NCBI GenBank assembly: GCA_965208505.1
Contig: OZ242339.1
Location: 2,011,162-2,075,161, forward strand
DNA length: 64,000 nucleotides
Direction: 5' to 3'
DNA from: Acidimicrobiales bacterium
Lineage (GTDB): Bacteria > Actinomycetota > Acidimicrobiia > Acidimicrobiales > Bin134
Below the pieces are notes generated by a model. That model did no database searches. It was given only the letters and a program-made list of their open reading frames with translations, and was not told the DNA's origin. A program made the translations under genes and the position numbers. Every line of letters begins with the position of its first letter. Position 1 is the first letter of the stretch. Below are positions 48,719 to 64,000 of the stretch, piece after piece.

Positions 48719-49333
48719 ATGAAATCGCTTAGAAATTCCGAGGAGGTGGTCGAGGGCCTCGGTGAAAAGGTAATTGAAGCTCTTGGGGCTGCCATCCCCC
48801 GAACACGGCTTGACCTTGCCAGATATCAGGCGATGCTCCCGGACATCGTTGCAACCTCCAGTTCTCGGGGACTGGCAAATTGGTTCCACGATCGCATTTG
48901 GTTCCACGTTGTCTCTGACCTTGAATCCCTCGACAACGCTGTCATTGTCGATAGGGGCCCGACTCGGGAGATCGTTATTGACGGCTCATACCGGATCCGC
49001 GTCAAGCGTCATGACAAGAAAGGCCAGATCAGCACCTACCCAACCCAATCTGCACTTGAGTTCCTTTCTCAGCCGCCAGAGCAACTCGTACTCGATGGAC
49101 TCGCTGAGGTCCACTTGATCGCTGGATACCAGTGGAACCCGACGACTCATGAGATAGGACCAGCTGTCCTGTCACTTCGCGACGGTCGAAACAATGTGAT
49201 CTGGATGATGGAGCTCCCCAACCTGGCTACTGGTGCCCCAGTCGTTGACATCACAGGCCCAAGAACCCCGGAGATCCCGACTATAGAGTTCCCGAGCAGC
49301 AGCGTTGGAGAAACGGAGGTCCGCCCGCAGTGA
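48719..49333 (+). CDS. hypothetical protein (orphan), coupled to XRE-ImmA/IrrE gene
   Basis: 204-aa ORF in a lower-G+C segment. Its stop overlaps the GTG start of the next gene (GTGA). No family recognised. Confidence 0.5.
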   Translation: MKSLRNSEEVVEGLGEKVIEALGAAIPRTRLDLARYQAMLPDIVATSSSRGLANWFHDRIWFHVVSDLESLDNAVIVDRGPTREIVIDGSYRIRVKRHDKKGQISTYPTQSALEFLSQPPEQLVLDGLAEVHLIAGYQWNPTTHEIGPAVLSLRDGRNNVIWMMELPNLATGAPVVDITGPRTPEIPTIEFPSSSVGETEVRPQ

Positions 49334-50370
49334 GCTTGGGGGAAGCAATCGCCACTGCACGACGAGCTCGAGGCTTGACTCAAGAAGAACTGGCAGAATG
49401 CCTGAACGTAACCCAGGCCGCTCTTTCCCGGTACGAAAACGACCTTCGAGACCCTACGGAGGAAGCTCTGAGCGAGATCGCCTCAGCTCTGGGAGTTGTA
49501 CCTGAGTTACTGAATCGAGCTGACCGCATGGAGGGGGCTCTGGCCGTTGGCGCTCACATGCGGCGACGAGCAACTGCCAAGCCGACGGTGTGGCGTCGGC
49601 TTGAAGCTCAGCTAAATCTCTACCGGCTCCATGCTCAGCGTCTCTTTGACGAGATCGGCCTGCGCACCGACTTATCTATCCCTGCGCTTGACCCACTCGA
49701 GTACGACCCCTCCTCAGCAGCCCGTATCCTCCGGATGCAATGGCGAATGCCGAGCGGACCGATTCACAATCTATGCAACTGGATGGAGGCCGCTGGCTGC
49801 CTGATCGTTGTTACAGATTTCGGCACATCTCGAGTAGACGGGCTATCTCAGTGGAGTGGTGCTCATCCGGTGATCATGCTCAACGCATCAGCACCGACAG
49901 ATCGCCGTCGGCTCACCTTGGCACATGAGCTGGGACACCTTTGCCTTCACAGCCAAGACATCTCTGACGATGTAGAGGCCGATGCCACTGAATTTGCTGC
50001 TGAGTTCCTTATGCCAGCAGAAACCATAAGGCCACAGCTTCGTAACCTCGGCCTCGGACGTCTTCATGACCTCAAAAGACTCTGGGGGGTTTCGATGCAA
50101 GCGCTGATTGAACGTAGTCATCAACTGGGACTCTTGAGCCCTCGGGAACGCACCAACTTCTATAAGCGGTTCAGCTCACAAGGTTGGCGAACCCGGGAGC
50201 CATTGAGTGACGAGTTGGCACAAGAAAAGCCCCGTCTCGCCGCGGAAATTGGCCAAGCCCTGATCGCTCGCGGTCTCACCGACAGCGAAGCCGCCATCAT
50301 CTGCGGCTTCTCCCCTGACAATCCGGACAACCCCTTCCTTTCTGACGCTTCCCGACTTCGCCTTGTTTGA
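49330..50370 (+). CDS. XRE-family HTH fused to ImmA/IrrE (M78, DUF955) metallopeptidase domain
   Basis: 346-aa ORF with N-terminal HTH (RGLTQEELAECLNVTQAALSRYE) and zinc motif HELGH. Confidence 0.8.
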   Translation: MSLGEAIATARRARGLTQEELAECLNVTQAALSRYENDLRDPTEEALSEIASALGVVPELLNRADRMEGALAVGAHMRRRATAKPTVWRRLEAQLNLYRLHAQRLFDEIGLRTDLSIPALDPLEYDPSSAARILRMQWRMPSGPIHNLCNWMEAAGCLIVVTDFGTSRVDGLSQWSGAHPVIMLNASAPTDRRRLTLAHELGHLCLHSQDISDDVEADATEFAAEFLMPAETIRPQLRNLGLGRLHDLKRLWGVSMQALIERSHQLGLLSPRERTNFYKRFSSQGWRTREPLSDELAQEKPRLAAEIGQALIARGLTDSEAAIICGFSPDNPDNPFLSDASRLRLV

Positions 50371-50410: not shown

Positions 50411-51007
50411 ATGTCCAAGCCGCTGGCGCTGCGCTTTCTCAAGTCGGCCAGCGATGCCGGCCAGCTACCCGAGTCCCGCTGCGAGGTGGCGCTGGTGGGG
50501 CGGTCGAATGTGGGCAAGTCGTCGCTTTTGAACTCGGTGGCCAACCGCAAAGGCCTGGCCCGCACGTCCAAGGCGCCGGGGGCCACCCGGCTGATCAACA
50601 TCTTCGAGCTGGAGGGCGAGTCCGGCCGCTGGCTAGTTGACCTCCCCGGCTACGGCTTTGCCAAGGCCCCCAAGGTGCAGCGGGTCGGATGGCAGAAGAT
50701 GATGGACGGCTACCTGCTCGACCGGCCCACTCTGGTGGAGGTGCTGCTGCTGGTGGACGGCCTCATCGGCCCCACCCCGCTCGATCTCCAAACCGTGGAA
50801 TGGCTCGAGCACCACGGCGTGCCCCTGCAACCGGTGGCCACCAAGGCCGACAAGGTGAAGCCGTCCCGCCGGGGCGCCCGAAAGGCCGAGCTGGCCAAGG
50901 GCCTCGGCGTCGCCCCCGGCGATGTCATCTGGACCAGCGCGGCCAAAGGCCAGGGCATCCCCGAACTCCGAGCCGAGATCGGCACCGCCCTCCGGCTCAA
51001 TCCCTGA
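50411..51007 (+). CDS. engB: ribosome biogenesis GTP-binding protein YihA/EngB
   Basis: 198-aa ORF with G1 GRSNVGKSS, G3 DLPGYG and G4 TKADK. Confidence 0.9.
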   Translation: MSKPLALRFLKSASDAGQLPESRCEVALVGRSNVGKSSLLNSVANRKGLARTSKAPGATRLINIFELEGESGRWLVDLPGYGFAKAPKVQRVGWQKMMDGYLLDRPTLVEVLLLVDGLIGPTPLDLQTVEWLEHHGVPLQPVATKADKVKPSRRGARKAELAKGLGVAPGDVIWTSAAKGQGIPELRAEIGTALRLNP

Positions 51008-51623
51008 GCAAAAACCCCACCGCGGCCTCCAGCTCGGCCAGCGCCTCGTCGGGATCGACCACCTTTATGGTGGTCATCCCCATGGCCCGGGCCGGCTTGA
51101 GGTTCACCCCCAAGTCGTCCAAGAACACACACTCCGAAGGCGCCACGTCCAACGCCTCGCAGGCCATGGTGTAAAACGCCGGATCGGGCTTGCGCACCCC
51201 CACCACTGAAGACTCGATAACCACGTCGAACCAGCCCATCACCTCCGCCATCTCCGCCGACCGCTCCGACGATGCCACCGGCGCATAGTTATTGGTCAAC
51301 AGCCCCGTCTTCAGCCGCTCCGAGCACCGCCGCACCGCTTCGGCCATCGCAGGCCGCAGTTCGCCGCCCAGCCCATTGAGCACCGCCATCCCATCAACCC
51401 GATACCCCAGCGCCGCCGCCTCTGCTTCAAACGCCTCGGCGAACTCCTGAAGCCTGATCTCACCCCGCTCCATCTGCGCCCAAGCATTGGTATCCGCATC
51501 AGTCGCATTGATCCGCCGTATCAACCCCTCCGGCAGCCCATTGTCCCGCTCATAAGCCGCAAACCCCTCCCAAGGCCCCGAAACAATCACCCCACCCATA
51601 TCAAACAACACCGCCTCGACCAC
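50997..51623 (-). CDS. HAD family hydrolase
   Basis: 208-aa ORF with motif I LFDMGGV and a late FLDDLGVN motif. Confidence 0.8.
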   Translation of the reverse strand: MVEAVLFDMGGVIVSGPWEGFAAYERDNGLPEGLIRRINATDADTNAWAQMERGEIRLQEFAEAFEAEAAALGYRVDGMAVLNGLGGELRPAMAEAVRRCSERLKTGLLTNNYAPVASSERSAEMAEVMGWFDVVIESSVVGVRKPDPAFYTMACEALDVAPSECVFLDDLGVNLKPARAMGMTTIKVVDPDEALAELEAAVGFLLRD

Positions 51624-51691: not shown

Positions 51692-52969
51692 TCAGGCCGC
51701 GATTCGTCGTTTGCCGGGTTGCTGTGGTGGCGGAGGTGGGAGGCCGAGGCGGGGCGGGGGTTGGAGCGTGAACCGGCCAGTTTCGGGGCAGGGCTCGACG
51801 GAATAGCCGCTTTTGTGGACTTTCTTGTGGCAGCGGGGGCACAGCAACACCAGGTTGTCTATGTCGGTGGTCCCGTTGTGCTCCCACGGTTGGATGTGGT
51901 GGGCTTCGCAGGCCTGTGGCCTGATGCCGCAGCCTACGCAACCTCGGTCTCTGCGGTAGAGGGCCAGCTTCTGGGCCTTGGTGACCGCTCTTTGGGCTCT
52001 TCCCACATAGAGGGGCTGTCCGTCGGCTGAGAAGATCATCGGAACGATCGCCGCATCGCAGGCCAAGCGGCGGAGCTCATCGAGGTCGATGGGCGTTCCG
52101 TCGATCAGCCCGGCGCTTGTGAGCCGGCCCTCGATGGCGTCGTACTCGGCTGACATCACGAGTACCGTCTTCTGCGGCCGAACGCCGCCGCCTTCACCGG
52201 CAGACTCATTTGCCGAAGCGTCGGCTGGCTGCTGGGTAATCAGCGTGACGAGTGCGTCTGCGTTGCGCTGCTCGAAGGTGCGCACCGGTTCGTAGGCGAT
52301 GTCGTCACCGAGCATCTTGGTGCTCATGGCCCAAAGGGCGGTCTTGACCCGATCTCCGGCTACCTGATCTAGCTCGGCGTGCAAAACGACCATACCGCCG
52401 CTGCCGTCGAACACCTTGACAGAGCGGCGGGCTCTTTGCCGCTCAATGCGGCTCATCCCGTCATCGGCCCGGCGCCGGTCCTCGCTGGCGACGACGGTCT
52501 TCTTGAACTCGTCGTGGCCTTGCCAACCGCCCAGCGCCAGCAGCTCTTGTTGGTCCTGCCCGCTTATCGGCACCCGCTTGTGCGATTCTGCGACCATCCC
52601 ACCCTGATCGGCGGAGATGTGTCCATTCTGCACGGCGCTGAGGACGTCGGGCATGGCCGTGAGCCCTTCGGCTATCTTGGCCAGCTGACGGGCCTTGTGA
52701 GCGCTGATTCCGAATTGATGGCACACCGTCGCCGCGGCACTCCGGCCCTCGATCTCTCCGTAGCGGACAACCAGTCCAACGAGGTATCCCTCCGCACGGC
52801 GGCGGATCGAGTCAGCCTCCGCCATCAAACCGAGCAACTCCGAAGCACTCGCCCCAGAAAAATCAGGAAACCCAAAACCCGCAGCAACACCGGCTTTGTC
52901 ATGCCCTTCACTGGGATTTATCCCAAACTCCATACATGCAATTATATCAATCCGAGTGACAACAACCAT
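51692..52969 (-). CDS. DUF222 domain / HNH endonuclease (REP13E12-like) protein
   Basis: 425-aa ORF with HNH motif CEAHHIQPWEHNGTTDIDNLVLLCPRCHKKVH. Start may be the MEFGINPSE codon at 52933. Confidence 0.85.
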   Translation of the reverse strand: MVVVTRIDIIACMEFGINPSEGHDKAGVAAGFGFPDFSGASASELLGLMAEADSIRRRAEGYLVGLVVRYGEIEGRSAAATVCHQFGISAHKARQLAKIAEGLTAMPDVLSAVQNGHISADQGGMVAESHKRVPISGQDQQELLALGGWQGHDEFKKTVVASEDRRRADDGMSRIERQRARRSVKVFDGSGGMVVLHAELDQVAGDRVKTALWAMSTKMLGDDIAYEPVRTFEQRNADALVTLITQQPADASANESAGEGGGVRPQKTVLVMSAEYDAIEGRLTSAGLIDGTPIDLDELRRLACDAAIVPMIFSADGQPLYVGRAQRAVTKAQKLALYRRDRGCVGCGIRPQACEAHHIQPWEHNGTTDIDNLVLLCPRCHKKVHKSGYSVEPCPETGRFTLQPPPRLGLPPPPPQQPGKRRIAA

Positions 52970-52985
52970 CCTGAATTAACAGGAA

Positions 52986-53438
52986 TTAGGCGACCATCCG
53001 CAAGAGCCGGTTGCCGGTATTGGTGTCGACGTAGGCGAAGCTCTGCGGGGGTCGAAAGCCTCTCGGCTTCGCCCGCAAGTCTTGGAGAGGCACCTTACTG
53101 ATGAGCGATTGCGGCTGTGCCAGCGTTAGAGCTGTACCTACTTCCAGTCCCTCGAAATAGCGCTGGAACTCTTGGTGGGCCAACGCGCATCGTGATCCGT
53201 GCTCGCGCCACAACACGGCGAGGTCGGCAGACTGGACATCCGTGACAATGCAGGTGCCGAGCAACGCCCGTACCGGTGTAGTCGCATACAACAGCGCCCG
53301 CGTCGGGACTTCGATCTTCGGCGCCGTGCGCCGGAACTCCACCGTCTTGTCCCCCGCAAGGATCGCTTCGGCGAATCTCGGCTTGAGCGACAGGACAACC
53401 ATCCGGTCTTGGTCGATCCCACCCACATCCTCAACCAT
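52986..53438 (-). CDS. ASCH domain protein
   Basis: 150-aa ORF. VVLSLKPRFAEAILAGDKTVEFRR is typical of PUA-like ASCH proteins. AAGG lies upstream of ATG 53438. Confidence 0.7.
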   Translation of the reverse strand: MVEDVGGIDQDRMVVLSLKPRFAEAILAGDKTVEFRRTAPKIEVPTRALLYATTPVRALLGTCIVTDVQSADLAVLWREHGSRCALAHQEFQRYFEGLEVGTALTLAQPQSLISKVPLQDLRAKPRGFRPPQSFAYVDTNTGNRLLRMVA

Positions 53439-55426
53439 CTCGCCTTAACCCTTCCTCGTAGAGTGCCCGGACACTCTGCTCGTCAACTCGTCGAGTTGTT
53501 ATGAAGTATCCCCTGGTATTCATGTCGGGGCACAACTCTCTGGCCCTCGATATCGGAACTGGCTCGCGGAACATCTCCGTTTGGCTGAAAAGCAGCGCTG
53601 TCGCTACAAGATCACTGCTCTCGCCAAACGGCTTGGCGCTTCTGAGCACCTGCGGCTTGTCGAGCACCCCGCGGGTTTTGGTGCTTGCGAAAAAGGCGGT
53701 GTGGGTCTCCCGTGTCGACCTCGTCCAACCACGACATAGCTCGCACGCCCCCCAATGCCCCGCCACCTGAAACCCACCAGATGATCCTTGCGGGCGCTTC
53801 AACAAAACTGCGGGGTGCCATGTAGTAGGTATTTTCTCGGGCAGCGGCTGCTCGGGAGTGCAACTCGAACAGCCGCGTCTGAGGCTCCTCATACCCGAGG
53901 AGGACGCGGGCGTACTCCGGCTTGATCGGCACCACATAGGACCTGATAGCCCTGCTGAAGACCTTCGACGGCCACGCAAAGCGCTCGTATTCTCGCACCA
54001 GATGGGAGTTCAGCCTGTCCCAACCGAACTCGATCAACTCCGGCGGCAAGGCATCGTCAGGGCCGAAGAGATCGGTCCGCACTACCGCCTTCCAAGCTGA
54101 CCCCTCGGCTCTGAACCCCTCGTCGTGCAGTGCCCGCTCGACTAACCGACGAGTTAGGTCGTCCACTGCGACGGTTGCCGGCCCATCGTTGGCGACGATT
54201 GTCCGAATTTGGTGGACCATCTGCCTGGCTGCCGTATAGGACTGCTGCCCTGGAGCACTACGGAGCGCTGTCACCGTGACGCCAGCTTGATCCCGGTACA
54301 TCGCGGCAATCGCCAGAGGTTCTTCTGAGTCTGTCTTGAGATACTCGATGCGCCCCCCGTGGGCAGTTGAGACGCTGAAACGCTGCCTCAAGCCGCTGGG
54401 GCTCTCACCCACATGATGATGGCAGCAGACTGACAGATCGGTGTTCGCAGGTATTTTTGAGACGGCAGACACGACCATGCCCGACGCAGCGATGGCTCGT
54501 GTCTGATGGCTGTGATCGCTTCCCAGCGCTTGGAGGCGTAACAAGAAATCGTCCGGCCCAACCAGATTCACCCCTGTCATCTGCCCGATCTGCTCCGCAT
54601 GCTTGAGGACACCTTCGTCTCGCGTGATGAGGTACGCGGCTCCCCCGGTCACTGCCTGGGCGACTACCCGAAGATCGCCACCTCTCAGAACAGCTACAGA
54701 CGGATCAGCCTCAAGCAACCCCAAAGCTGCCTGCCATGCCTCATAAGACGGTTCCAGAGTTCGAAACTCGCCCAGTGCGGATTCAAACCTCTCACCCTTG
54801 GGTATCTGACCCGACAGTTCAGAGTGACTCTGCACCGTTACTGCCAACTCTGCGACCTCGGCAACCCAGTCTGCGACGAGCGCCCGCGAGGCGAGGAATT
54901 CTCGCTGCTCCAAGATGTCCAACAGAACATTGGTGTCGATGGCCGCCAATAAGCGAGCATCTTCCTGTTCGGGTTCCCCAAAAAGTGCCTGAGCTGCGAT
55001 TGGCCGCCACCATGTGACGAGGGGGTGTCCAGCACGACTGCGGCCTGGCTTCTCCCCCAAGCGCCGAAATCCGAACTCGGGCCACAAGCTGTTCGCTTCG
55101 TAGTCCTTGCGGCACGACAGATGGATCCCCGCCCTGTGGGGGTTGCGCTCAACAATGCCCTCCACTAGCTCCCGCGCGATCCCCCTCCCTCGTTGTTCTG
55201 AACCCACACAGAGATGGGTGAGTGAGATGTCCCCTGTCCTGATCCTCTTCCTAAAGAGCGCGTAGCCTCTGACCTCACCGTCTTCCGCGAACACGAGCAC
55301 CCTGCCGTCGGCTGCGGCCTCGTTGATCGCCGAATACGGCAAGATTCCCAACGTCGCACTGCTGGCGTTTCCAAGTTCGATGACCTGCTCGTAGTACGGC
55401 GACCCTGGTTTGACTGTTTCGATCAC
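53431..55426 (-). CDS. multidomain GNAT acetyltransferase - PIN nuclease - (GNAT-like) - ASCH-like protein, apparent 1-nt frameshift near 53667-53670
   Basis: GTG 55426 has GGAGGG 8 nt upstream; an alternative upstream start is possible. GNAT core SEQRGRGIARELV; PIN AIDTNVLLDIL..YLITRDEG; C-terminal VVPIKPEYARVLLG. The reading frame 53612-55426 continues in the 53431-53979 frame. Confidence 0.6.
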
Positions 55427-55762
55427 GTTCAATGCCCTCCAATCAGCGTGGCGAGGTCGGGCGAACTCTACCGGGAGGTAACGACACAATTGCCCGCAGG
55501 CGGTTCCGGCTGGGGCTAGCCCAAGGAGCTTGCAGGTCACTGTGTTGGGACACCACCTTGGCGCGCCGGCTGGATCGTTCGGCAACGGCTGGTCCCTGTC
55601 CTTCTTCGACACGGGTACCCCTATCGAGGTGATCGACCGGAGGGGATTGCTCGCCACCCCACAAACCAAGCTCGCAAGAGCGAGAGGACAGATACACCTC
55701 TATCGCCCCTCAATTCGGTAGAGTAGTGCCCACATGGTCCCCGGCAGGGGGGCCAACAACCT

Positions 55763-57184
55763 ATGGAGTTCCCGATGCGGATCTTGTCTTCTGTCACCCC
55801 CACCCCCGAGCAGTTGAAAGTCCTCGCAGATGTCAAACCAGGGTTCCGCATCATCAGAGGTGCTGCTGGCAGCGGCAAGACATCCACAGCGCTCCTAAGG
55901 TTGCGTGAGCAAGCCACAGTCCGCCTCAAGCGTCGTCAACGTCATAGTCACACCACACCAGTGCGGGTGCTGGTCTTGACCTTCAATAGGACCCTTGAAG
56001 GCTACATTTCAGAGCTTGCCAGGCAATCAACACCCAGCGATGATGCTCTGGAGTTGGAAATCAGCACCTTTGGTCGCTGGGCGAGATCGCTGGTCGACGA
56101 CGTTGAAATCTTGGGTCGCAATCAAGCCTCGGCAATTCTCCGTCCCCTCATTCAACATTTCACAACCTCGCATCAGCACGAGTTCTTCGTCGACGAGGTT
56201 GAATACGTCTTGGGCCGGTTCACGCCAGAAGGCCTCTCCAGCTACCTAGAGGTGGTCCGCAGGGGCCGAGGCACTGCTCCGCGGGTAGACAAACCCGTTC
56301 GAGAGACCCTGCTCCAAGAAGTTCTTCCTGCGTACAAAGAGGCTAAGGCCAAGCGTGGCGTTGTCGATTGGAGCGATCTCGCCATCTTGGCTTCTGATGC
56401 TCAGCCGGATCTGCTCTACGACGTAGTGATCGTCGATGAGGCACAAGACTTCTCTGCCAACCAAGTCAGAGCAGTGAAGCGCCACCTTCAGGACTCCCAC
56501 AACACCACCTTTATCATCGATGCCATTCAGCGCATCTACCCTCAGTACTTCACATGGAACGAGGTTGGTATCGAGGCTCGCCCTGAGGTCATCCGCACCC
56601 TCCGAGAGAACTACCGCAACACTGCCACGATCGCCTCCTTCGCTTTGCCGCTCGTAGACGGCCTTCCAGTCGAAGACGACGGCACGTTGCCGGACTTCAC
56701 CGCCTGCCAGCGCTCAGGTGCCAAACCGCTTGTCGTCTCGGGCAAGTACAGCGCACAGCTCCGCTTTATGTTCGATCGGCTCACGAAAGACGCTGACTTG
56801 GAATCCGAGTCAGTAGCCCTGCTCCAGCCTCGAGGCGGGGGCTGGTTCGACGAAGCTCGGCGGATCTTGCAAGTTCGAGGGATACCGTTCTGTGAGCTGA
56901 CCCGCGAGAACGAATGGCCATCAGGTTCTGAGGTAGTCGCCCTCTGCACCATCCACTCCGCCAAGGGCCTCGAGTTCGATCATGTGCTGATTCCCGGTCT
57001 TAGCCAGCAAGTCACTCCACATGGGCCAGATGCCGGTGACGCCAACCTGGATCGGCTGCGCCGCATGTTGGCCATGGCCATAGGCCGAGCCCGCAAGTCG
57101 GTAATGGTCGGCTACAAGCCCGGCGAAGAATCCCGCCTTGTAGGTCTTCTCGACCCCTCCACCTACCACTTTGTTGAGGCGTGA
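55763..57184 (+). CDS. SF1 (UvrD/Rep-like) helicase, compact form
   Basis: 473-aa ORF with Walker A GAAGSGKT, Walker B VIVDEAQD, NYRNT, TIHSAKGLEFD and AIGRARKS. ATG 55775 has a better RBS (GGAG). Confidence 0.8.
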   Translation: MEFPMRILSSVTPTPEQLKVLADVKPGFRIIRGAAGSGKTSTALLRLREQATVRLKRRQRHSHTTPVRVLVLTFNRTLEGYISELARQSTPSDDALELEISTFGRWARSLVDDVEILGRNQASAILRPLIQHFTTSHQHEFFVDEVEYVLGRFTPEGLSSYLEVVRRGRGTAPRVDKPVRETLLQEVLPAYKEAKAKRGVVDWSDLAILASDAQPDLLYDVVIVDEAQDFSANQVRAVKRHLQDSHNTTFIIDAIQRIYPQYFTWNEVGIEARPEVIRTLRENYRNTATIASFALPLVDGLPVEDDGTLPDFTACQRSGAKPLVVSGKYSAQLRFMFDRLTKDADLESESVALLQPRGGGWFDEARRILQVRGIPFCELTRENEWPSGSEVVALCTIHSAKGLEFDHVLIPGLSQQVTPHGPDAGDANLDRLRRMLAMAIGRARKSVMVGYKPGEESRLVGLLDPSTYHFVEA

Positions 57185-57879
57185 CAGCCATGAACTGGGA
57201 ACCCGAAGCAATCCCAAAGACCGCAGATCAACTACGCCATTCACCAAGCTGCCCCGAGGTGGTCGAAGCTGCCGTTGAGCGGGGCATTACCTGCATAGTG
57301 CATTTCACCCGCATCAATCCTGGTCTGGTGGGCATATTGGACAGTTCGGCAATCAAGTGCAGGAGTGACCTGCCTGATGACAAGCGATTGAAGTACGCGT
57401 ACGAGCCGAATGCGAATTATCGAGGTCGGGACTCCCGCTGGCACGGATACGCCAACCTGTCCGTGACAGGAATAAACAAGCGGATGTTCCGCTCATCCAA
57501 AGAGTGGCACACAGAGGTAGATTGGGTGATCCTTGGCTTTGGCCCGGAAGTCCTGGGCGACCCCGGCGTTGTTTTCTGCACCACCAACAACGCCTACCCA
57601 GTCGTACACCGCTGCGAGGACTTGCCGGGCTTCGAGCAAATGTTCGCAACAGAAATCCCCTGGGGCTATCAGGGAAGCGTCTGCACCCGGATCGGGCGAC
57701 AGTCGAACCAGACGACCGATCCCCAAGCGGAAGTCCTCTACCCGTCGGCACTCTCCCTCGATCATCTCCACACGATTACCGTTGGGGATGAGGACACATA
57801 CGACACCGTGGTTGGCGCCTTGGCCAACTTCCCAAACTACACCCCCTATATCGCCCTCAAGCCGGAGGCGTTCCGATGA
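57181..57879 (+). CDS. DarT-like (DUF4433-like) ADP-ribosyltransferase, putative toxin
   Basis: 232-aa ORF. Four blocks are collinear with my recollection of DarT: CIVHFTRI, HGYANLSV, VFCTTNNAY and QAEVLYPSALSLDHLHTITV. 4-nt overlaps with both neighbouring genes. Confidence 0.55.
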   Translation: MTAMNWEPEAIPKTADQLRHSPSCPEVVEAAVERGITCIVHFTRINPGLVGILDSSAIKCRSDLPDDKRLKYAYEPNANYRGRDSRWHGYANLSVTGINKRMFRSSKEWHTEVDWVILGFGPEVLGDPGVVFCTTNNAYPVVHRCEDLPGFEQMFATEIPWGYQGSVCTRIGRQSNQTTDPQAEVLYPSALSLDHLHTITVGDEDTYDTVVGALANFPNYTPYIALKPEAFR

Positions 57880-59519
57880 CCATGACCAATCGAACTCCGC
57901 CAGAGCAGGCAGACCTCTTCTGCGAGACTGACAACAACCGGGTCGCTCGAACTCGGAACTCCATGTTGTGGGCCGCATATGGAGATGCGCTCGGATTCAT
58001 CAGCGAGTTGGTGGACGAAAAAGGCCTCAAGCGCAGAACTCAGGGGGCTCCGCTAGACCGGCTCATGGACTGGAGACGAAGGGTTGGGGGCCGGGGAGGC
58101 GTGGACGTAGTGCTACCCGCCGGATGCTGGTCCGACGACACTCAGCTTCGAATGGCGGTAGGCCGCTCGATCGGCAATCACGGCTTCGACGTGGAGACTT
58201 TCGCTCGCATCGAGCTTCCGGTTTGGCCGTCCTACGCGCTCGGCGGTGGGCGGGCGTCCAAGGCTGCGGCCAAGAACCTCGCCGCGTCCGGTGCCCTTTG
58301 GTACGCCAACACTTTCCCCGGGTGGAGTAACGCTGGAGGCAACGGTGCCGCCATGCGGATCCAACCTCATGTATGGGCATCTGCCGACCTCAACGGCGGC
58401 TACCTGCTCGACGTGATCACCGACAGCGTCTGCACCCACGGACATCCCCGGGCCATCGTGGGGGCCTGCTTCCACGCGGCCACCCTGGCCCACTGCCTGC
58501 GAACCGGCACCGCCCCGACCTTGGAGGAGTGCGCGGAACTCGCTGCCAATCTGGGCGATGCCCTCTCGCTGATCAAGGGCCATCAGAGTCTCGGCTCCAT
58601 GTGGGTCGGTCTCTGGGAGCGGGAGAGCGGCAAGCTATTCCAAGAGGCATGGCAGGACACCATTGTCGAACTCTGCGATGCCATCAAACGAACCGCCATT
58701 GCTGCCGATGCCACCTCGCCACAAACCGACGCCTACCGAGCAGTCTCCGACCGTCTTGGCCTCGCCGACAAGCGGCAGCAGGGCAGCGGCATCCTCACCA
58801 CCGTGGCCGCCGCGGCACTCGCCGTGCTCGCGGACAACCCATACGAGGGTTGCGCAGCTGCTGCGAACGCGCTCGGCACCGACACCGACACGATTGCCAC
58901 AATGGCAGGCGCTCTGCTAGGTGCCTGTGATGCAACCGCCCAACCCTCCGAAGAACCTCTCGACAGCAATTACCTGCTGAACGAGGCCGACCGCCTCACC
59001 GCTATCTCCCAAGGTCAGCAAGTGACCAGCCACCCCTACCCGGACACCCTCACCTGGATCGCACCCCAAACCCAAGCCGACGCGCTGGTATCCGAAAATG
59101 GACATCTCGTCGTCGAAGGCCTCGGCCCGGTAAAAGAGCAGGATTCCCCACCGTCCTGGGGGCCTCGTAAAGACTTCGCCTGGCAGTGGGTCCAAACCGA
59201 ATTCGGCCAGACACTCCTCATCAAACGCCGCCCCGAACTCCGCGCTCAAAGCATGTGCAATGCCCCGGAACCTCCTCCTGCACCTTCATCTTCCATCCGT
59301 TCCCACAAGCCGGCCAGGGCCAACAAGCAGACATCCTGCCCGCCAAGTGAGTTGCCGCTGGATCGCGGCCTCGACTTTGACGCCGCGGTAAGACACGCCA
59401 AAGAGCACATCTCCAACGACAACCAACTTGGTTACACCGTCCGACGCGCCGCCCGAGACGGAACCATCAATGACCTAGTCGCTCTCGTCGCCACTCTCCG
59501 CGACGACCTGCGCCGCTGA
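57876..59519 (+). CDS. ADP-ribosylglycohydrolase (ARH/DraG family) with C-terminal extension, putative antitoxin
   Basis: 547-aa ORF with AAYGDALGFISE, WSDDTQLRM and GTDTDTIATMAGALLGA metal-binding blocks, plus about 170 further residues of unknown fold. Confidence 0.85.
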   Translation: MTMTNRTPPEQADLFCETDNNRVARTRNSMLWAAYGDALGFISELVDEKGLKRRTQGAPLDRLMDWRRRVGGRGGVDVVLPAGCWSDDTQLRMAVGRSIGNHGFDVETFARIELPVWPSYALGGGRASKAAAKNLAASGALWYANTFPGWSNAGGNGAAMRIQPHVWASADLNGGYLLDVITDSVCTHGHPRAIVGACFHAATLAHCLRTGTAPTLEECAELAANLGDALSLIKGHQSLGSMWVGLWERESGKLFQEAWQDTIVELCDAIKRTAIAADATSPQTDAYRAVSDRLGLADKRQQGSGILTTVAAAALAVLADNPYEGCAAAANALGTDTDTIATMAGALLGACDATAQPSEEPLDSNYLLNEADRLTAISQGQQVTSHPYPDTLTWIAPQTQADALVSENGHLVVEGLGPVKEQDSPPSWGPRKDFAWQWVQTEFGQTLLIKRRPELRAQSMCNAPEPPPAPSSSIRSHKPARANKQTSCPPSELPLDRGLDFDAAVRHAKEHISNDNQLGYTVRRAARDGTINDLVALVATLRDDLRR

Positions 59520-59570: not shown

Positions 59571-59867
59571 GTGGACGTGACCGTCACCATTCCTGATGAT
59601 CTCTACGAGCAGGTGGAATCACTCGCCTGCCGCCAAGAACAGCCCCGCTCAGACCTCTACGCCCAAGCTCTGAAGATGCTCGTCCGTGCCCAAGGCGACC
59701 CTGATCAGCTATCAGATGGTCCCAGCAGACCCGAGTGGCTGGACTGGAGCGCCGAAGAGATCACCAGCAACCTCAATGAGTACGCCAGCAAACACGATAC
59801 CCGCCTCGACTCAGCACTAGCAGAGGCTCAAACCAGAATGCTCTCGGAGAACTGCGAGTGGGAGTGA
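59571..59867 (+). CDS. small ribbon-helix-helix (CopG/MetJ-like) protein
   Basis: 98-aa ORF with GTG start. VTVTIPDDLYEQVESLA....RSDLYAQALKML has the RHH pattern. Overlaps the next gene by 10 nt. Confidence 0.45.
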   Translation: MDVTVTIPDDLYEQVESLACRQEQPRSDLYAQALKMLVRAQGDPDQLSDGPSRPEWLDWSAEEITSNLNEYASKHDTRLDSALAEAQTRMLSENCEWE

Positions 59868-61237
59868 GGCGAGGCGATTTGCAATTGCGGGCACCCGAGT
59901 TCGTTGTAGACGCCGATAACCCTTTTGCAAATGACCGGCTGAATCGCCAACACGATATAAAGTCATTCTGCGATGTGATTCAGAACGCTGGAGAACACGG
60001 AGCAATCATCCTGCTTGACGGCCAGTGGGGTTCGGGAAAAACGGCATTCGTCAAGATGGCCACTGCCCATTTGCAAACTCAAGACGCAAGAGTTGCCGAG
60101 TTCAACGCGTGGAAGCAAAGCCATACCGAGATACCACTCGCGGATCTGATTGCAGCTATGTCTACACAGATCGACAAATCCAAAATAAAGGCTGTAAAGA
60201 AAGCGGCGGGAAATGCACTTGTTCACGTCAGCAAGATGGCCAGTCGTGGAATCGTAGATGTAGATGCCATGAAGAATTCCAAGCCTGAGATCATTGATCA
60301 GTGGGAAGGGACCGAAAAAACAATAGGTGAATTCAAGACTCAACTTCAACTTGCAGCGTCATCAGATAACGGTCCTATTGTAGTCATCATTGACGAGTTG
60401 GACAGGTGTCGTCCAGACTATGCACTGAAGGTATTGGAAACTGTCCGGCACCTATTCGATGTTCCTGGTCTGGTTGTCGTGCTTGCCGCCAACTTGGAAG
60501 AACTCTGCCACACCGTTCAATCCATTTACGGGCCGAACTTCACAGCAGACCGTTACTTGCGCCGTTTCGCCGACCAATATGTGCTGCTAACCAAGCCCGA
60601 TGAGCAGCATCTCTCTGAGTTCCTTGAACACACCTTGGAGATAGCCGGACTGCATACTCGCATTTCAGCGGCGAACTCGCCTATGGGCACCGATGCAGAT
60701 GCAGGCAAAGTCCTGCAACTGGCGATTGAAGCTACGGGATGCAGCATTCGCGATCTAGAACAGGCAATTTTTCGAACTGTAACGCCTATCGCTTCTGTAG
60801 AGCCAGGTTTTCGTCCTCGTTCTTCTGCTCCGCAACCGACACTCATAGTAGCTGCACTAACAACTCTGCAAGTCATAGCCCCAGATGCCTATCGAGGCAT
60901 TGTAGATGGAGACGATAATGACGGATTCGCTGCAATTGCTGCAATATGCAGGGTTTTCGGCAAACCATATGAGGATAACATAAACGACTGGCCGTTCACG
61001 CCAAGAGGTCAACTCGAATCAATCTTGATAGCAGGTATGAGCACAGCCTCTAGCGGCAAGGTAGCGGAGATAAGTGAGAACATTTCACGAGACTATCAAA
61101 AAGCCACGCAATGCAGCGACGAGTTGGCCGCCACGATGGGTAGTCGCATTATCGGTATAGACTTGAGAACCTTCAACTGGGTTCGTCGTTTAGTGTGTTT
61201 CCGAGACTATAAGCCATCCACAGGCGAGCAAATATAG
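59858..61237 (+). CDS. KAP family P-loop NTPase (no transmembrane insert evident)
   Basis: 459-aa ORF with Walker A DGQWGSGKT and Walker B/KAP block VVIIDELDRCRPDYALKVLE. Markedly A/T-rich codon usage. Confidence 0.8.
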   Translation: MGVRRGDLQLRAPEFVVDADNPFANDRLNRQHDIKSFCDVIQNAGEHGAIILLDGQWGSGKTAFVKMATAHLQTQDARVAEFNAWKQSHTEIPLADLIAAMSTQIDKSKIKAVKKAAGNALVHVSKMASRGIVDVDAMKNSKPEIIDQWEGTEKTIGEFKTQLQLAASSDNGPIVVIIDELDRCRPDYALKVLETVRHLFDVPGLVVVLAANLEELCHTVQSIYGPNFTADRYLRRFADQYVLLTKPDEQHLSEFLEHTLEIAGLHTRISAANSPMGTDADAGKVLQLAIEATGCSIRDLEQAIFRTVTPIASVEPGFRPRSSAPQPTLIVAALTTLQVIAPDAYRGIVDGDDNDGFAAIAAICRVFGKPYEDNINDWPFTPRGQLESILIAGMSTASSGKVAEISENISRDYQKATQCSDELAATMGSRIIGIDLRTFNWVRRLVCFRDYKPSTGEQI

Positions 61238-61311: not shown

Positions 61312-64000
61312 TCAGTGTTTTGGCGGTTTTCTCTGGGCGGGGGTTGTGGTGGGGAGATCGGTGGCGGGGATAAGGGGGGAGGCGAGGATGTCGTCTAGGA
61401 GTTTGGCGGCGGTGGGGGTGACTTGGACGGTGTGGTCGAGGACGGCGAGGAGGCGGAGGAGTTCGTCGGTTTGGGTCCACTGGGTGGGGCGGATGTCGTC
61501 GAGGGGGCTGGACTTGCGGCCCTTGCGGTTCTTCATGCGGTAGCCGAGCCAGGAGCGGAGGACTTTGAGGCCGGAGACTTCGAAGTTCCAGACTTCCAGG
61601 CTGACGGGGCCAAAGACTCCCGTGCCGACGATCAGATGCTGAGTGTCGATGGCGTAGGCGAACTGCTCGGGCATAGCCTCCACGGGGTCGATCTCTTGGG
61701 CGGGGCCAGCAGGGAGATGGGCTTGGCCGGGTGGCGCGAAGCGTTCGCCCCAGGTGTGGTGCCAAAGCAGGTCGCGACCCAAATCCGCTGCTTGCCGGAA
61801 CAGGTCGGCATCGGTGGTGACGGGGAGGTGGATGGGGCCAGCACCTTCAGCAAGCTCGTTGGCGAAGTGTTGGCTGAAGGCAGCAGTGCCGCCAAGGGCG
61901 TAGGCGTAGGCCAGCAAGTCCTCGGGAGTGACCACAATGCCAAGTTGCTGGCTCAGGGCTTCGAGCAGGCCTTCGGTGATGTTGGCTGCTCGGCCGCTGC
62001 TGTCGCGGTAGAGAGGTATGACATCTTTTGCGCCGCGACCGCTGAAGTGGTGAAAGTCAGGTACAAATGGGGTGATTGTGAGCACCGGGCCATATCCAAA
62101 TTTAGTAGACGTCAAAGTTGTGAGAAAGACCTGGTGGGAACCGCGGACACGCCACATGTCTGGCCCGGCTCGATCAATTAGCCGTTGGTCAGCGATCAAC
62201 CACTGCCGGTCGAAGCTCCGGTAGCCGTACTGTTCAAGGCGTTCAAATGGGTCCCCGCGATCCAAATGCAGCGCAGATTGCAACTTCTTCGTCCCGCCAT
62301 GCAGAGGTTTGGGCTCGCTATGGACCTTTTGGCCTGATGGGCTCTCATCAAACAACTCTTGACGCTTGCGTGGCACTGCTGTCAAGAACGCCCGCCATCG
62401 GCTCTCAAGCACCTGCTTCGTTTCCGCGATAGGCCATGTTCGGCCGAGTTTGCAACCGGATCTGATCCACGGGAACAAGTCGGTCACCTGCGGCCAGTCG
62501 TAGTACGCGGCGTCGCTGCGGGGTGTTAGGTCGTCTAGGCCGATGCCAGTGATCTGTTCATTCACATCATCAAGGGACAGACCGTTTAGTCCTGCCAGCT
62601 TTTGCTCCCTGGTGCCTCCGACACGGTGGTAGCGCACGGTGCAATGGCCGGAACGTTCGGTCTGGGTGCGGACACCGACGGCCACGGCGACGGGGGTTTG
62701 GATGTCGAAAACGTTCTCTTCCTTTTGGGCACCGCGGCCTTCGCCACCGAGGTCGATGATCCACAGTTCGTCGAATGCTTGGCGCAACAGGTGGCGGACA
62801 CCGCCCATGGAAATGCCGTCCAAGTAGGACGAGGCGGTGATGAAGGCGACCACGCCGGGACCAGGAGGAAGTTCAATGGCCTGCCAGATGGACCACACCC
62901 AGAAGTAGACGTAGTCGTTGTAGACATTCTTCAGGTGAATGCCCAGACCGGCCGACCTCATGGGCTCGGTTACGGCATCCATCAGAGGGACGGGCTGCGA
63001 TGTTCCCTTGCTTCCCGACCGAGTAGCTGCCCGCCTCTTGGCGGTGTCGGCGTCGAATAACGGCCGGATCCCAGGCACCCCGTAGCGGACCACTCCGCCT
63101 TTACGGCGGCCAGTGGTGCCGGATTCTCGCTCTTCGCGGTCATAGGGCGGGTTGCCAAGTACGACGGTGAACCGTTCATGCTCCTTAAGCTCGGAGGCCC
63201 GTTCGCCTTCCTCAGCCACGGGGTTGCTCATGGTTTGGAGCTGACCTTGGCGGGGGGTGTGGTCGAGGGCGTCGGTGAGCAGCACTTGGGGGTCGCCGTC
63301 GTCCACGCCTTCGCTGTGCAATTCCAGGGCGACCTTGAGGTGGGCGATGGCGTAGGGGCCGAGCATCAGCTCGAAGGCGTGCATCTGGGGCAGGACGTGG
63401 TCGCGCAGGTGCTTTGCCCACTCTTCCCGAGCACCACCCGCTCCCAGGAACGACCGCTTGGCTTGGCGGAGCCAGGCCACCAGGAATGTGCCAGTACCGG
63501 TGGCGGGATCGACCATCGATACGAACGGGCGATCAGGGCCTATGCCATCGGGTAAGTCAAAGCCATTGCGGTCGGCTACCTCCCGCCAGGTGGCGGGATC
63601 GGCAATGCCCATCGGCAAACCGAAGCGGGAGCGCAGCACTTCATCAGTGGCTCGCACGATGAAGTCCACGACCGGCTGGGGCGTGTAAAAGGCGCCAGCG
63701 TCGGCTCGCATCTTGGGGTCGTACTTCTTGAGGAACTCCTCGTAGAAGTGGATGACAGGGTCGCCGCCCTTGGCGGTGGCACCGAACTGGTCGAGGATCG
63801 ACTCTACGTTGGTGTCGCGCAGGTCAGCCACAAGCTGGGTGATCCCGCTGCCGGCCAAGTCGAGGGCGGCGGCCTCGTCGTGGACCTGCTCGAAGAAAGC
63901 GGCCAAGAACGGGTTGGCCAGCGGGAGGGCTGAGAAGATGGGCGACGAGCCGAATCCCTCGGGGTCGGTGATCCGGCTGGTGAGGGCGCCGTAAACCAGG
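61312..64000 (-). CDS. gamma-class N6-adenine DNA methyltransferase with type ISP-like C-terminal domain (5' end outside window)
   Basis: The frame stays open through 64000 upstream of the listed TTG at 63906. Motif I VDPATGTGTFLV, motif IV GNPPYDRE, C-terminal YGYRSFDRQWLI block. Confidence 0.8.
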   Translation of the reverse strand, partial: LVYGALTSRITDPEGFGSSPIFSALPLANPFLAAFFEQVHDEAAALDLAGSGITQLVADLRDTNVESILDQFGATAKGGDPVIHFYEEFLKKYDPKMRADAGAFYTPQPVVDFIVRATDEVLRSRFGLPMGIADPATWREVADRNGFDLPDGIGPDRPFVSMVDPATGTGTFLVAWLRQAKRSFLGAGGAREEWAKHLRDHVLPQMHAFELMLGPYAIAHLKVALELHSEGVDDGDPQVLLTDALDHTPRQGQLQTMSNPVAEEGERASELKEHERFTVVLGNPPYDREERESGTTGRRKGGVVRYGVPGIRPLFDADTAKRRAATRSGSKGTSQPVPLMDAVTEPMRSAGLGIHLKNVYNDYVYFWVWSIWQAIELPPGPGVVAFITASSYLDGISMGGVRHLLRQAFDELWIIDLGGEGRGAQKEENVFDIQTPVAVAVGVRTQTERSGHCTVRYHRVGGTREQKLAGLNGLSLDDVNEQITGIGLDDLTPRSDAAYYDWPQVTDLFPWIRSGCKLGRTWPIAETKQVLESRWRAFLTAVPRKRQELFDESPSGQKVHSEPKPLHGGTKKLQSALHLDRGDPFERLEQYGYRSFDRQWLIADQRLIDRAGPDMWRVRGSHQVFLTTLTSTKFGYGPVLTITPFVPDFHHFSGRGAKDVIPLYRDSSGRAANITEGLLEALSQQLGIVVTPEDLLAYAYALGGTAAFSQHFANELAEGAGPIHLPVTTDADLFRQAADLGRDLLWHHTWGERFAPPGQAHLPAGPAQEIDPVEAMPEQFAYAIDTQHLIVGTGVFGPVSLEVWNFEVSGLKVLRSWLGYRMKNRKGRKSSPLDDIRPTQWTQTDELLRLLAVLDHTVQVTPTAAKLLDDILASPLIPATDLPTTTPAQRKPPKH

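Follow-up and report, generated by a model that had tools for sequence, protein, structure and literature searches.

The PIN_15 and PIN_17 families were described by Matelska et al. (2017; PMC5499597) as PIN-GNAT-PUA proteins whose GNAT-like domain is without motif A. Bell, Wolf and Koonin (2020; PMC7641849) reported that (PIN)-GNAT-EVE operons nearly always encode an ASCH protein, that the forms with a PIN domain adjoin type I restriction-modification (R-M) and other defense systems and that, according to the authors, the modules are all uncharacterised. A separately encoded ASCH/PUA protein beside the PIN-GNAT-PUA protein is described in both papers, and both credit Iyer et al. (2013). Models for the two parts of such pairs are found in PADLOC-DB as candidate system PDC-M11 (PDC-M11A and PDC-M11B), for whose function we found no paper, and the record of the lambdoid Escherichia phage PhiR47_2 (PV340567.1) contains, between cI and kil, a 357-amino acid (aa) 'GevT toxin' and an overlapping 125-aa ASCH 'GevA antitoxin'. 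In this study, we analyzed a pair of minus-strand genes in a stretch of 64,000 nucleotides (nt) from an Acidimicrobiales bacterium (contig OZ242339.1, positions 2,011,162 to 2,075,161; this whole stretch is referred to as the window). The large gene of the pair encodes, once a frameshift is repaired, a protein with a canonical GNAT domain (GNAT1), a PIN domain, a degenerate GNAT fold (GNAT2) and an ASCH-like domain, and the small gene encodes a stand-alone ASCH protein.

We assign this pair with high confidence to the PDC-M11 class, i.e., a (PIN)-GNAT-PUA protein plus a separate ASCH protein. When this assignment is blended with an effector/antidote reading that we hold much more tentatively, the interpretation that we modestly favor is a conflict module of two genes, probably coupled in translation, of which the window carries a decayed copy.

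Family assignment of the gene pair

The small protein matched Pfam ASCH (E = 1.1e-6), the ZmASCH sequence in PDB (E = 1.6e-23) and PADLOC PDC-M11B (E = 3e-29). The large protein matched PDC-M11A over its PIN region only (model positions 5-148 of 486, E = 1.8e-6), while a full-length relative on a Calothrix plasmid matched PDC-M11A over the GNAT2-PUA region (1.3e-9, positions 61-358 of 376, and 2.2e-10). PDC-M11A was also matched by 50 of the 51 sampled members of the clade. Given the match of the Calothrix relative and those of the 50 clade members, the pair is filed as a divergent branch of the PDC-M11 class and not as a new kind of system. GevT and GevA matched PDC-M11A and PDC-M11B with E = 2e-133 and 7e-52, respectively, and tblastn gave 29% identity (E = 5e-12) between the PhiR47_2 pair and that of the window. 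What links the window family to GevT is the PADLOC models and the partner common to both.

The window pair shares with the (PIN)-GNAT-PUA proteins and PDC-M11 the domain order, in which PIN is followed by a GNAT-like domain without motif A and then by a PUA-like domain, as well as the second PUA-like protein (ASCH), which is always encoded by the next gene. It also shares with PDC-M11 and the PIN-GNAT-EVE operons the setting by type I R-M systems and in defense islands. In contrast, the clade to which the window pair belongs adds an N-terminal canonical GNAT, which is not mentioned in the accessible literature, and its C-terminal domain scores as a ZmASCH-like ASCH domain, without a match to EVE. 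No AAA_17 ATPase gene is found at the window locus. As in the window, GevT/GevA consists of two overlapping genes, the large one first and then the small ASCH gene, and GevA falls into one PADLOC family with the partner in the window; GevT, however, is composed of GNAT-like and PUA domains only, without PIN or canonical GNAT, and is prophage-borne.

An earlier annotation made from the letters of the window without database searches (the sequence-only reading) knew of no described system with this architecture. That statement is overturned by the PIN-GNAT-PUA plus ASCH proteins of PMC5499597 and PMC7641849, by PDC-M11A/B in PADLOC-DB and by GevT/GevA in PV340567.1.

Gene structure and frameshift

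The two open reading frames (ORFs) are real genes and not chance ORFs. They share 8 nt at 53431-53438 of the minus strand (ATGGTTGA), where the ATG of the small ORF, at 53438, overlaps the TGA of the large gene, at 53431-53433; such a stop/start overlap is typical of translational coupling. The small gene (52986..53438, minus strand) is intact, with 150 codons, and encodes the PDC-M11B/GevA-like partner. The large gene (53431..55426, minus strand) has 664 codons once one base is removed and is frameshifted as given, so that the mechanical ORF list splits it into 53612-55669 (685 aa) and, in the next frame, 53431-53979 (182 aa). No second copy of the pair was found within the 64-kb window.

More than 100 homologues of ~664 aa open with MIE(T/A)V at the GTG at 55426, which is the start of the large gene. 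A GGAGGG lies ~9 nt upstream of this GTG, in the divergent intergenic region (55427..55762) that separates the large gene from a helicase-DarT-ARH operon. On this alignment of homologues the alternative start, TTG 55669, was dropped. The sequence-only reading had thus described the 8-nt overlap of the two minus-strand genes and the need for a frameshift repair correctly; its product length of about 660 aa after repair also stood, but its gene start, taken from the ORF start at 55669, had to be moved to 55426.

The frameshift was pinned to a CCC run at 53673..53675 (minus strand), which has one C in excess. The DNA alignment shows CC instead of CCC at this site in the relatives L001, L039, L035 and L003. 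In the protein alignment the homologues read HQ(D/N)RGVLD there, and the break falls between ...LFRKHQ and RGVLDKPQV..., while tblastn breaks the large gene into frames -1 and -2 at 53675/53694. The unrepaired gene would yield 604 aa, without the final 80 residues of the C-terminal domain, whereas the repaired protein of 664 aa is 90% identical to the intact homologue P0001 over its whole length. Programmed frameshifting was ruled out, as the homologues are all single ORFs and the extra C is missing in the four relatives. To judge from the sequence, the large gene in the window is probably a pseudogene, although the extra C could reflect an assembly error as well as a mutation. Lesions of their own are seen in the large gene of the closest relatives, i.e., frameshifts and an internal deletion in L035 and a truncation in L039, and because these lesions are independent, the decay of the large gene in this lineage is real.

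Domain architecture of the large protein

With the repaired translation as query, the search for full-length homologues returned more than 120 clusters, most of them of ~664 aa and with 99-100% query coverage, whose identity to the query ranges from 90% down to 31%. The AlphaFold model of the repaired protein has a mean predicted local distance difference test score (pLDDT) of 86 and a predicted template modeling score (pTM) of 0.75. The four domain calls of the sequence-only reading, i.e., GNAT, PIN, degenerate GNAT and a C-terminus akin to the downstream ASCH protein, proved right on profiles, AlphaFold/Foldseek and BLASTP. We also noticed that one domain of the full-length model matched BFVD entry A0A831A9H8, an unnamed viral protein of 135 aa, with a template modeling (TM) score of 0.92, a root mean square deviation of 1.5 and E = 3e-11.

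GNAT1 (54977..55426, minus strand; aa ~1-150) is a canonical acetyltransferase domain that matches Pfam Acetyltransf_10/1/7 with E = 2e-8 to 4e-7, passing thresholds. Its acetyl-CoA-binding motif A (R79-x-x-G82-x-A84) is intact, and R79, G82 and A84 are kept in 111-112 of 113 sequences. The best matches of GNAT1 are Ard1, RimI, PA4794 and the tabtoxin-resistance protein, and NCBIfam rimI matches it weakly over aa 35-125. The best Foldseek matches of the full-length model are likewise Ard1/RimI-type N-acetyltransferases over ~150 residues, the output being silent on the region aligned.

The sequence-only reading had connected this domain to the toxins TacT, AtaT and ItaT. Their conserved acetyl-CoA motif is indeed shared by GNAT1, as is their setting in a small overlapping operon of a mobile or defense region; however, no specific link was found. 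Foldseek, NCBIfam and sequence comparison lent no support to a TacT/AtaT-type identity of GNAT1, and AtaT appeared only among weak structural matches to GNAT2. Moreover, unlike in the TacT/AtaT/ItaT and VapBC systems, the pair is flanked by no ribbon-helix-helix (RHH)/DUF1778 antitoxin gene and has no VapB-type antitoxin.

The PIN domain (54527..54955, minus strand; aa ~158-300) matches Pfam PIN_3/PIN below threshold in the window copy (E = 5e-3) and more strongly in relatives, where PIN_3 reaches 2e-11; comparison of the segment with PDB sequences gave noise only. Its acidic residues are kept in most of the 119 sequences compared (D164 in 118, E193 in 113, D251 in 95 and D270 in 117). A PIN domain with four acidic residues is also the feature that the large protein has in common with VapC. 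In VapBC, however, PIN stands alone and is preceded by an upstream VapB, whereas here it is one of four domains and its only partner is the downstream ASCH protein.

GNAT2 (54017..54505, minus strand; aa ~308-470) is a divergent GNAT fold that was identified by fold search. It has no match to any GNAT profile, Pfam entry or PDB sequence, including by profile search, and the R/Q-x-x-G-x-G/A motif is not present in it. Its AlphaFold model (pLDDT 84) has the secondary-structure order b-a-a-b-b-b-a-b-a-b-b, which is the strand-helix order of GNAT, and the top 50 PDB matches in Foldseek are all GNAT acetyltransferases (E = 6e-5 to 1e-3). GNAT2 agrees with the degenerate GNAT, missing motif A, of the PIN-associated proteins in PMC5499597 and is probably non-catalytic.

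The C-terminal domain (53434..53959, minus strand; aa ~490-664), which is broken by the frameshift, is an ASCH-like domain of the PUA superfamily. It matches ZmASCH by profile (E = 1.7e-3) and, in the full-length model, by Foldseek (TM 0.8, E = 4e-7), and it matches the downstream small ASCH protein by BLASTP (E = 0.002). Pfam EVE matched none of the 12 + 51 family members scanned, and the domain scores as ASCH. The octapeptide of the ASCH ac4C amidohydrolases/erasers YqfB, TthASCH and ZmASCH, G-x-K-x-x-(E/T)-x-R with catalytic K and E/T, is present in the small protein but not in this domain, which has D/E531 (called by gap-free extension of the profile alignment) and Y534 at the positions of the lysine/glutamate (K/E) dyad. 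Residues R530, Y534, Y535, R547, W550, W551, S565 and D568 vary little or not at all. Given that the aromatic and basic residues of this set (R530, Y534, Y535, R547, W550, W551) are kept while the dyad is gone, the domain is better suited to a reader than to an enzyme.

The small ASCH protein

The closest characterized relative of the small protein, and the only close one studied biochemically, is ZmASCH of Zymomonas mobilis (PDB 5GUQ/5GUS), which carries the same GKER octapeptide and itself scores as PDC-M11B (3e-29). ZmASCH binds nucleic acids and weakly cleaves single-stranded RNA (ssRNA) (PMC5615036). A preprint of 2026 (10.64898/2026.02.27.708502) reports that it strips N4-acetylcytidine (ac4C) at position 34 (ac4C34) from tRNA in vitro, that all 19 of the 19 ASCH proteins assayed de-acetylated tRNA in vitro and that, in the related ASCH proteins that were mutated, the lysine and the glutamate of the octapeptide are essential for the removal of ac4C from tRNA. 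In the family analyzed here all 42 full-length partner sequences, with that of the window among them, have the octapeptide GxKxxExR (G29, K31, E34, R36) unchanged, and residues equivalent to Y47, K53 and S128 of the ZmASCH cleft occur in 42, 38 and 40 of them, respectively. By this homology, the small protein would be a protein of the ASCH-eraser type, and removal of ac4C is predicted for it from the in vitro activity of ZmASCH.

In L048 (4825-6447), the gene upstream of ZmASCH (375 aa) had no Pfam or PADLOC match and no hhalign link to the large protein or GevT, and the idea of linking ZmASCH to a large partner was dropped, as this neighbor shows no relation. The small protein (1e-7) and GevA (L045 3995-4372; 3e-15) also match the non-L22 half of NCBIfam PRK12279 ('50S ribosomal protein L22/unknown domain fusion protein'), which indicates that some organisms carry this ASCH subfamily as a fusion with a ribosomal protein.

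Conservation, decay and distribution of the pair

Related loci were found through motifs of the large-gene C-terminus, and in this set, which is biased toward sponge-associated Acidimicrobiia, the large gene, or what is left of it, is immediately followed by the ASCH gene in 44/44 loci. In 37 of them the large gene keeps its 3' end and a partner start could be placed; stop and start overlap there by 8 nt in 21 cases, by 4 nt in 9 and by 11 nt in 6, the remaining one having a gap. Lesions of the large gene, whether a frameshift, an internal deletion, a 5' truncation or an interruption, affect 14 loci (about a third), 11 of which keep an intact partner, while an intact large gene lacks an intact partner in 0 of ~29 loci. 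The window locus is one further case of a broken large gene with an intact partner. This asymmetry of decay is the pattern to be expected if the upstream gene were harmful without the downstream one. The sequence-only reading had suggested a search for recurrence of the pair and for its enrichment near defense genes; the pair does recur, and type I R-M and other defense genes flank the loci. The view of the pair as a conflict module, taken in the same reading, fits the conserved overlap of start and stop and the location in defense islands.

Some remnants of the large gene deserve a mention. L036 (2103-2905 and 8001-8866, i.e., twice), L037, L038 and L043 retain only its final ~90-150 codons, fused to an intact ASCH gene. 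In L021 (8987-10144), an insertion of ~1.1 kb divides the large gene at codon ~477.

The spread of the clade was followed by an exhaustive profile search with the PIN-GNAT2-ASCH part only, which returned 1,795 clusters at 50% identity with E <= 1e-3, 967 of them with E <= 1e-30. Most of the best 150 clusters are 660-710 aa long and have an N-terminal extension of ~155 aa, the match beginning near residue 155-165. Pfam scans showed this extension to be a GNAT; GNAT models match 35 of the 51 sampled members, a sample that deliberately took in short forms, and at least one of the seemingly short forms is a truncated gene call. The hosts include sponge-associated Acidimicrobiia, a cultured Actinoallomurus (WP_433393554.1), cyanobacterial plasmids and Prevotella, with further members in metagenome-assembled genomes labeled Terriglobia, Caldilineaceae and Desulfovibrio, so that the family covers at least Actinomycetota, Cyanobacteriota and Bacteroidota. 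Since only one relative of the four-domain protein came up in IMG/VR, the clade is not notably phage-borne. In alignment A6 (P0138 with 832 aa, P0177 with 910 aa, and others), one sampled member has the large protein and a PDC-M11B ASCH domain in a single fused chain, and a BrxA-like domain is carried by one sampled member.

The combination of a GNAT with an ASCH eraser recalls the logic of TmcA/YqfB, and the pair might accordingly be read as a housekeeping writer and eraser of RNA modification, with a function in, e.g., tRNA ac4C homeostasis and none in conflict. We regard this as highly improbable. The distribution of the pair is patchy, some genomes carry two copies of it and others carry it on plasmids, its large gene is frequently disrupted (the window genome included), and it is found next to defense genes in a variable hotspot between conserved core genes.

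Genomic context

This hotspot is recognized from conserved genes for an EngB GTPase and a HAD hydrolase (50411-51623), since the same core genes border different defense cargo in L001, L035, L039 and L040. In the window they lie between a gene for a protein with helix-turn-helix (HTH) and Peptidase_M78 domains (49330-50370, plus strand; PADLOC RmrA, 1e-55) and a DUF222-HNH endonuclease gene (51692-52969, minus strand) that adjoins the pair. On the other side, the divergent operon that the sequence-only reading had placed next door was recovered (55763-59519, plus strand), with overlapping starts and stops and genes for a UvrD-like helicase (473 aa), DarT (PF14487, 3.6e-14) and an ADP-ribosylglycohydrolase (547 aa; PF03747, 2e-31). 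It is followed by a gene for an RHH protein (98 aa) that overlaps one for a KAP-family P-loop NTPase (59571-61237, plus strand; PADLOC single-gene candidate PDC-S20, 1e-70) and by an ORF of 864 aa for a type ISP-like R-M enzyme (61312-63906, minus strand). The latter has ~81% DNA identity to the type ISP/IIG gene of L001, whose restriction-methyltransferase protein matches PADLOC REase_MTase_IIG with 6e-222.

The hydrolase that accompanies DarT here is of the ARH type, and a macrodomain was not detected in the operon. By analogy only, the large gene and its ASCH partner resemble DarT/DarG, whose antitoxin enzymatically undoes a nucleic-acid modification, in that a writer toxin and an eraser antidote are proposed, and a DarT-like gene with an ARH hydrolase adjoins them; the chemistries (acetyl vs. 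ADP-ribose) differ, however, and the folds are unrelated.

Among 92 ORFs that flank the pair in ~40 loci, 14 encode N6 DNA methylases (10 with HsdM_N), and others encode HsdR, ResIII, type ISP, GmrSD, AbiEii-like and SNF2 proteins. In Calothrix, the copy is flanked by an Eco29kI R-M pair on one side and by McrBC on the other. The frequent proximity of type I R-M genes, as for the PIN-GNAT-EVE proteins (PMC7641849), is what would be expected if the pair were a base-modification accessory of R-M systems instead of a toxin-antitoxin system, an idea that secondary sources attribute to Iyer et al. (2013). GNAT1 would then acetylate a DNA base or a guide RNA, the two PUA-like domains would read modified bases, and PIN would process the nucleic acid of the invader, so that the pair would tune self/non-self discrimination beside type I R-M. 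PUA-superfamily domains are established readers of modified bases, ASCH-HsdS fusions exist in some archaea, and the invariant aromatic residues of the C-terminal domain (Y534, Y535, W550, W551), together with its missing catalytic dyad, suit such a reader. However, the PIN-domain toxins of the cited literature are RNases, the characterized relative of the partner works on ssRNA and tRNA and not on DNA, and the pair is also found without an adjacent R-M system (the window, L002). Asymmetry of decay and so strict an overlap of start and stop are also more typical of toxin-antidote pairs, and we consider an accessory role in R-M unlikely.

Proposed mechanism and implications

The mechanism that we propose for the conflict module is one of effector and antidote, to which we give somewhat less than an even chance. 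The large protein would act as the effector, i.e., as the toxin. It would be attached to RNA by GNAT2, which is degenerate, and by its ASCH-like domain, which is catalytically dead, with tRNA or some other abundant and structured RNA as the likeliest target; GNAT1 would acetylate this RNA or an amine attached to it, and the PIN domain would cut RNA. The small ASCH protein would be the antidote, produced in step with the effector by means of the start/stop overlap, and would neutralize it either by cleaving off the acetyl mark or by taking up the same surface on RNA or protein. The kinship of the small protein with ZmASCH and the kept K/E dyad speak indirectly for the logic of acetylation and de-acylation that the sequence-only reading had thought conceivable. 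A more specific version, in which GNAT1 marks tRNA or rRNA, the dead ASCH-like domain reads the mark and licenses the cut by PIN, and the small ASCH protein erases the mark, is in our view a rather improbable one. Since the targeting domain loses its last 80 residues through the 1-nt insertion, the effector of this genome would be inactive and the antidote gene alone intact.

Several points weigh against the effector/antidote mechanism or the family link behind it. Overexpression of ZmASCH in E. coli gave no significant decrease of ac4C, and free ac4C was not hydrolysed by ZmASCH (10.64898/2026.02.27.708502). As GNAT1 is most like protein N-acetyltransferases (Ard1, RimI, PA4794) and not like TacT/AtaT or the writers of ac4C, a protein substrate is equally possible. 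The structure search gave no independent support for the PIN fold. GevT, if toxic, is so without PIN and canonical GNAT, and the toxicity of the family need not, therefore, stem from acetylation or PIN cleavage. The labels of GevT and GevA as toxin and antitoxin are GenBank annotation only, with no paper on them found, and we found no experiment on any member of the clade in the literature. In profile-profile comparisons by hhalign (alignment A7 against A3, A6 and A2, and GevT alone against A3), the GevT family and the window family were not significantly related (E = 0.04-0.44), one of the alignments being colinear over 285 columns. To these is added the biased sampling of the related loci.

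The in vivo result with ZmASCH and the likeness of GNAT1 to protein N-acetyltransferases, in both structure and sequence, would also be accounted for if the small ASCH protein were a non-enzymatic regulator or adaptor, i.e., a transcriptional autoregulator or a stoichiometric inhibitor bound to the large protein. GNAT1 would then acetylate a protein, be it a factor of the phage, one of the host or the module itself, which leaves PIN as the sole RNA-directed activity. Bell et al. (PMC7641849) suggest that expression may be under the control of the ASCH partner, and ASCH is found fused to an HTH in alpha-proteobacteria; the fold common to the C-terminal domain and the partner could, in addition, allow the two to form a heterodimer. 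However, neither Pfam nor PDB profile comparison found an HTH in the small ASCH protein of the window, the conservation of the K/E dyad, which is invariant in every one of the 42 partners, and of the cleft residues is unexpected for a purely structural inhibitor, and the de-acetylation of tRNA by all of the ASCH proteins tested in vitro argues for an enzyme. A non-enzymatic partner thus appears improbable to us.

With the effector/antidote mechanism, the added canonical GNAT makes the chemical hypothesis concrete, as the acetyl mark would be set by the large protein and erased by its ASCH partner, and because the preprint of 2026 reports de-acetylation of tRNA by ASCH proteins, this writer/eraser hypothesis is now directly testable. 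If true, the writer-reader-eraser module would be the first with an RNA-deacetylase antitoxin, and the ac4C-eraser activity of ASCH proteins, that of ZmASCH included, would gain a natural biological role. The family concerned is large (~1,800 clusters at 50% identity), is found repeatedly in defense islands and consists of experimentally uncharacterized members. In the genome analyzed here, the pair is one more cargo item of a variable defense hotspot, with an effector gene that is probably dead.

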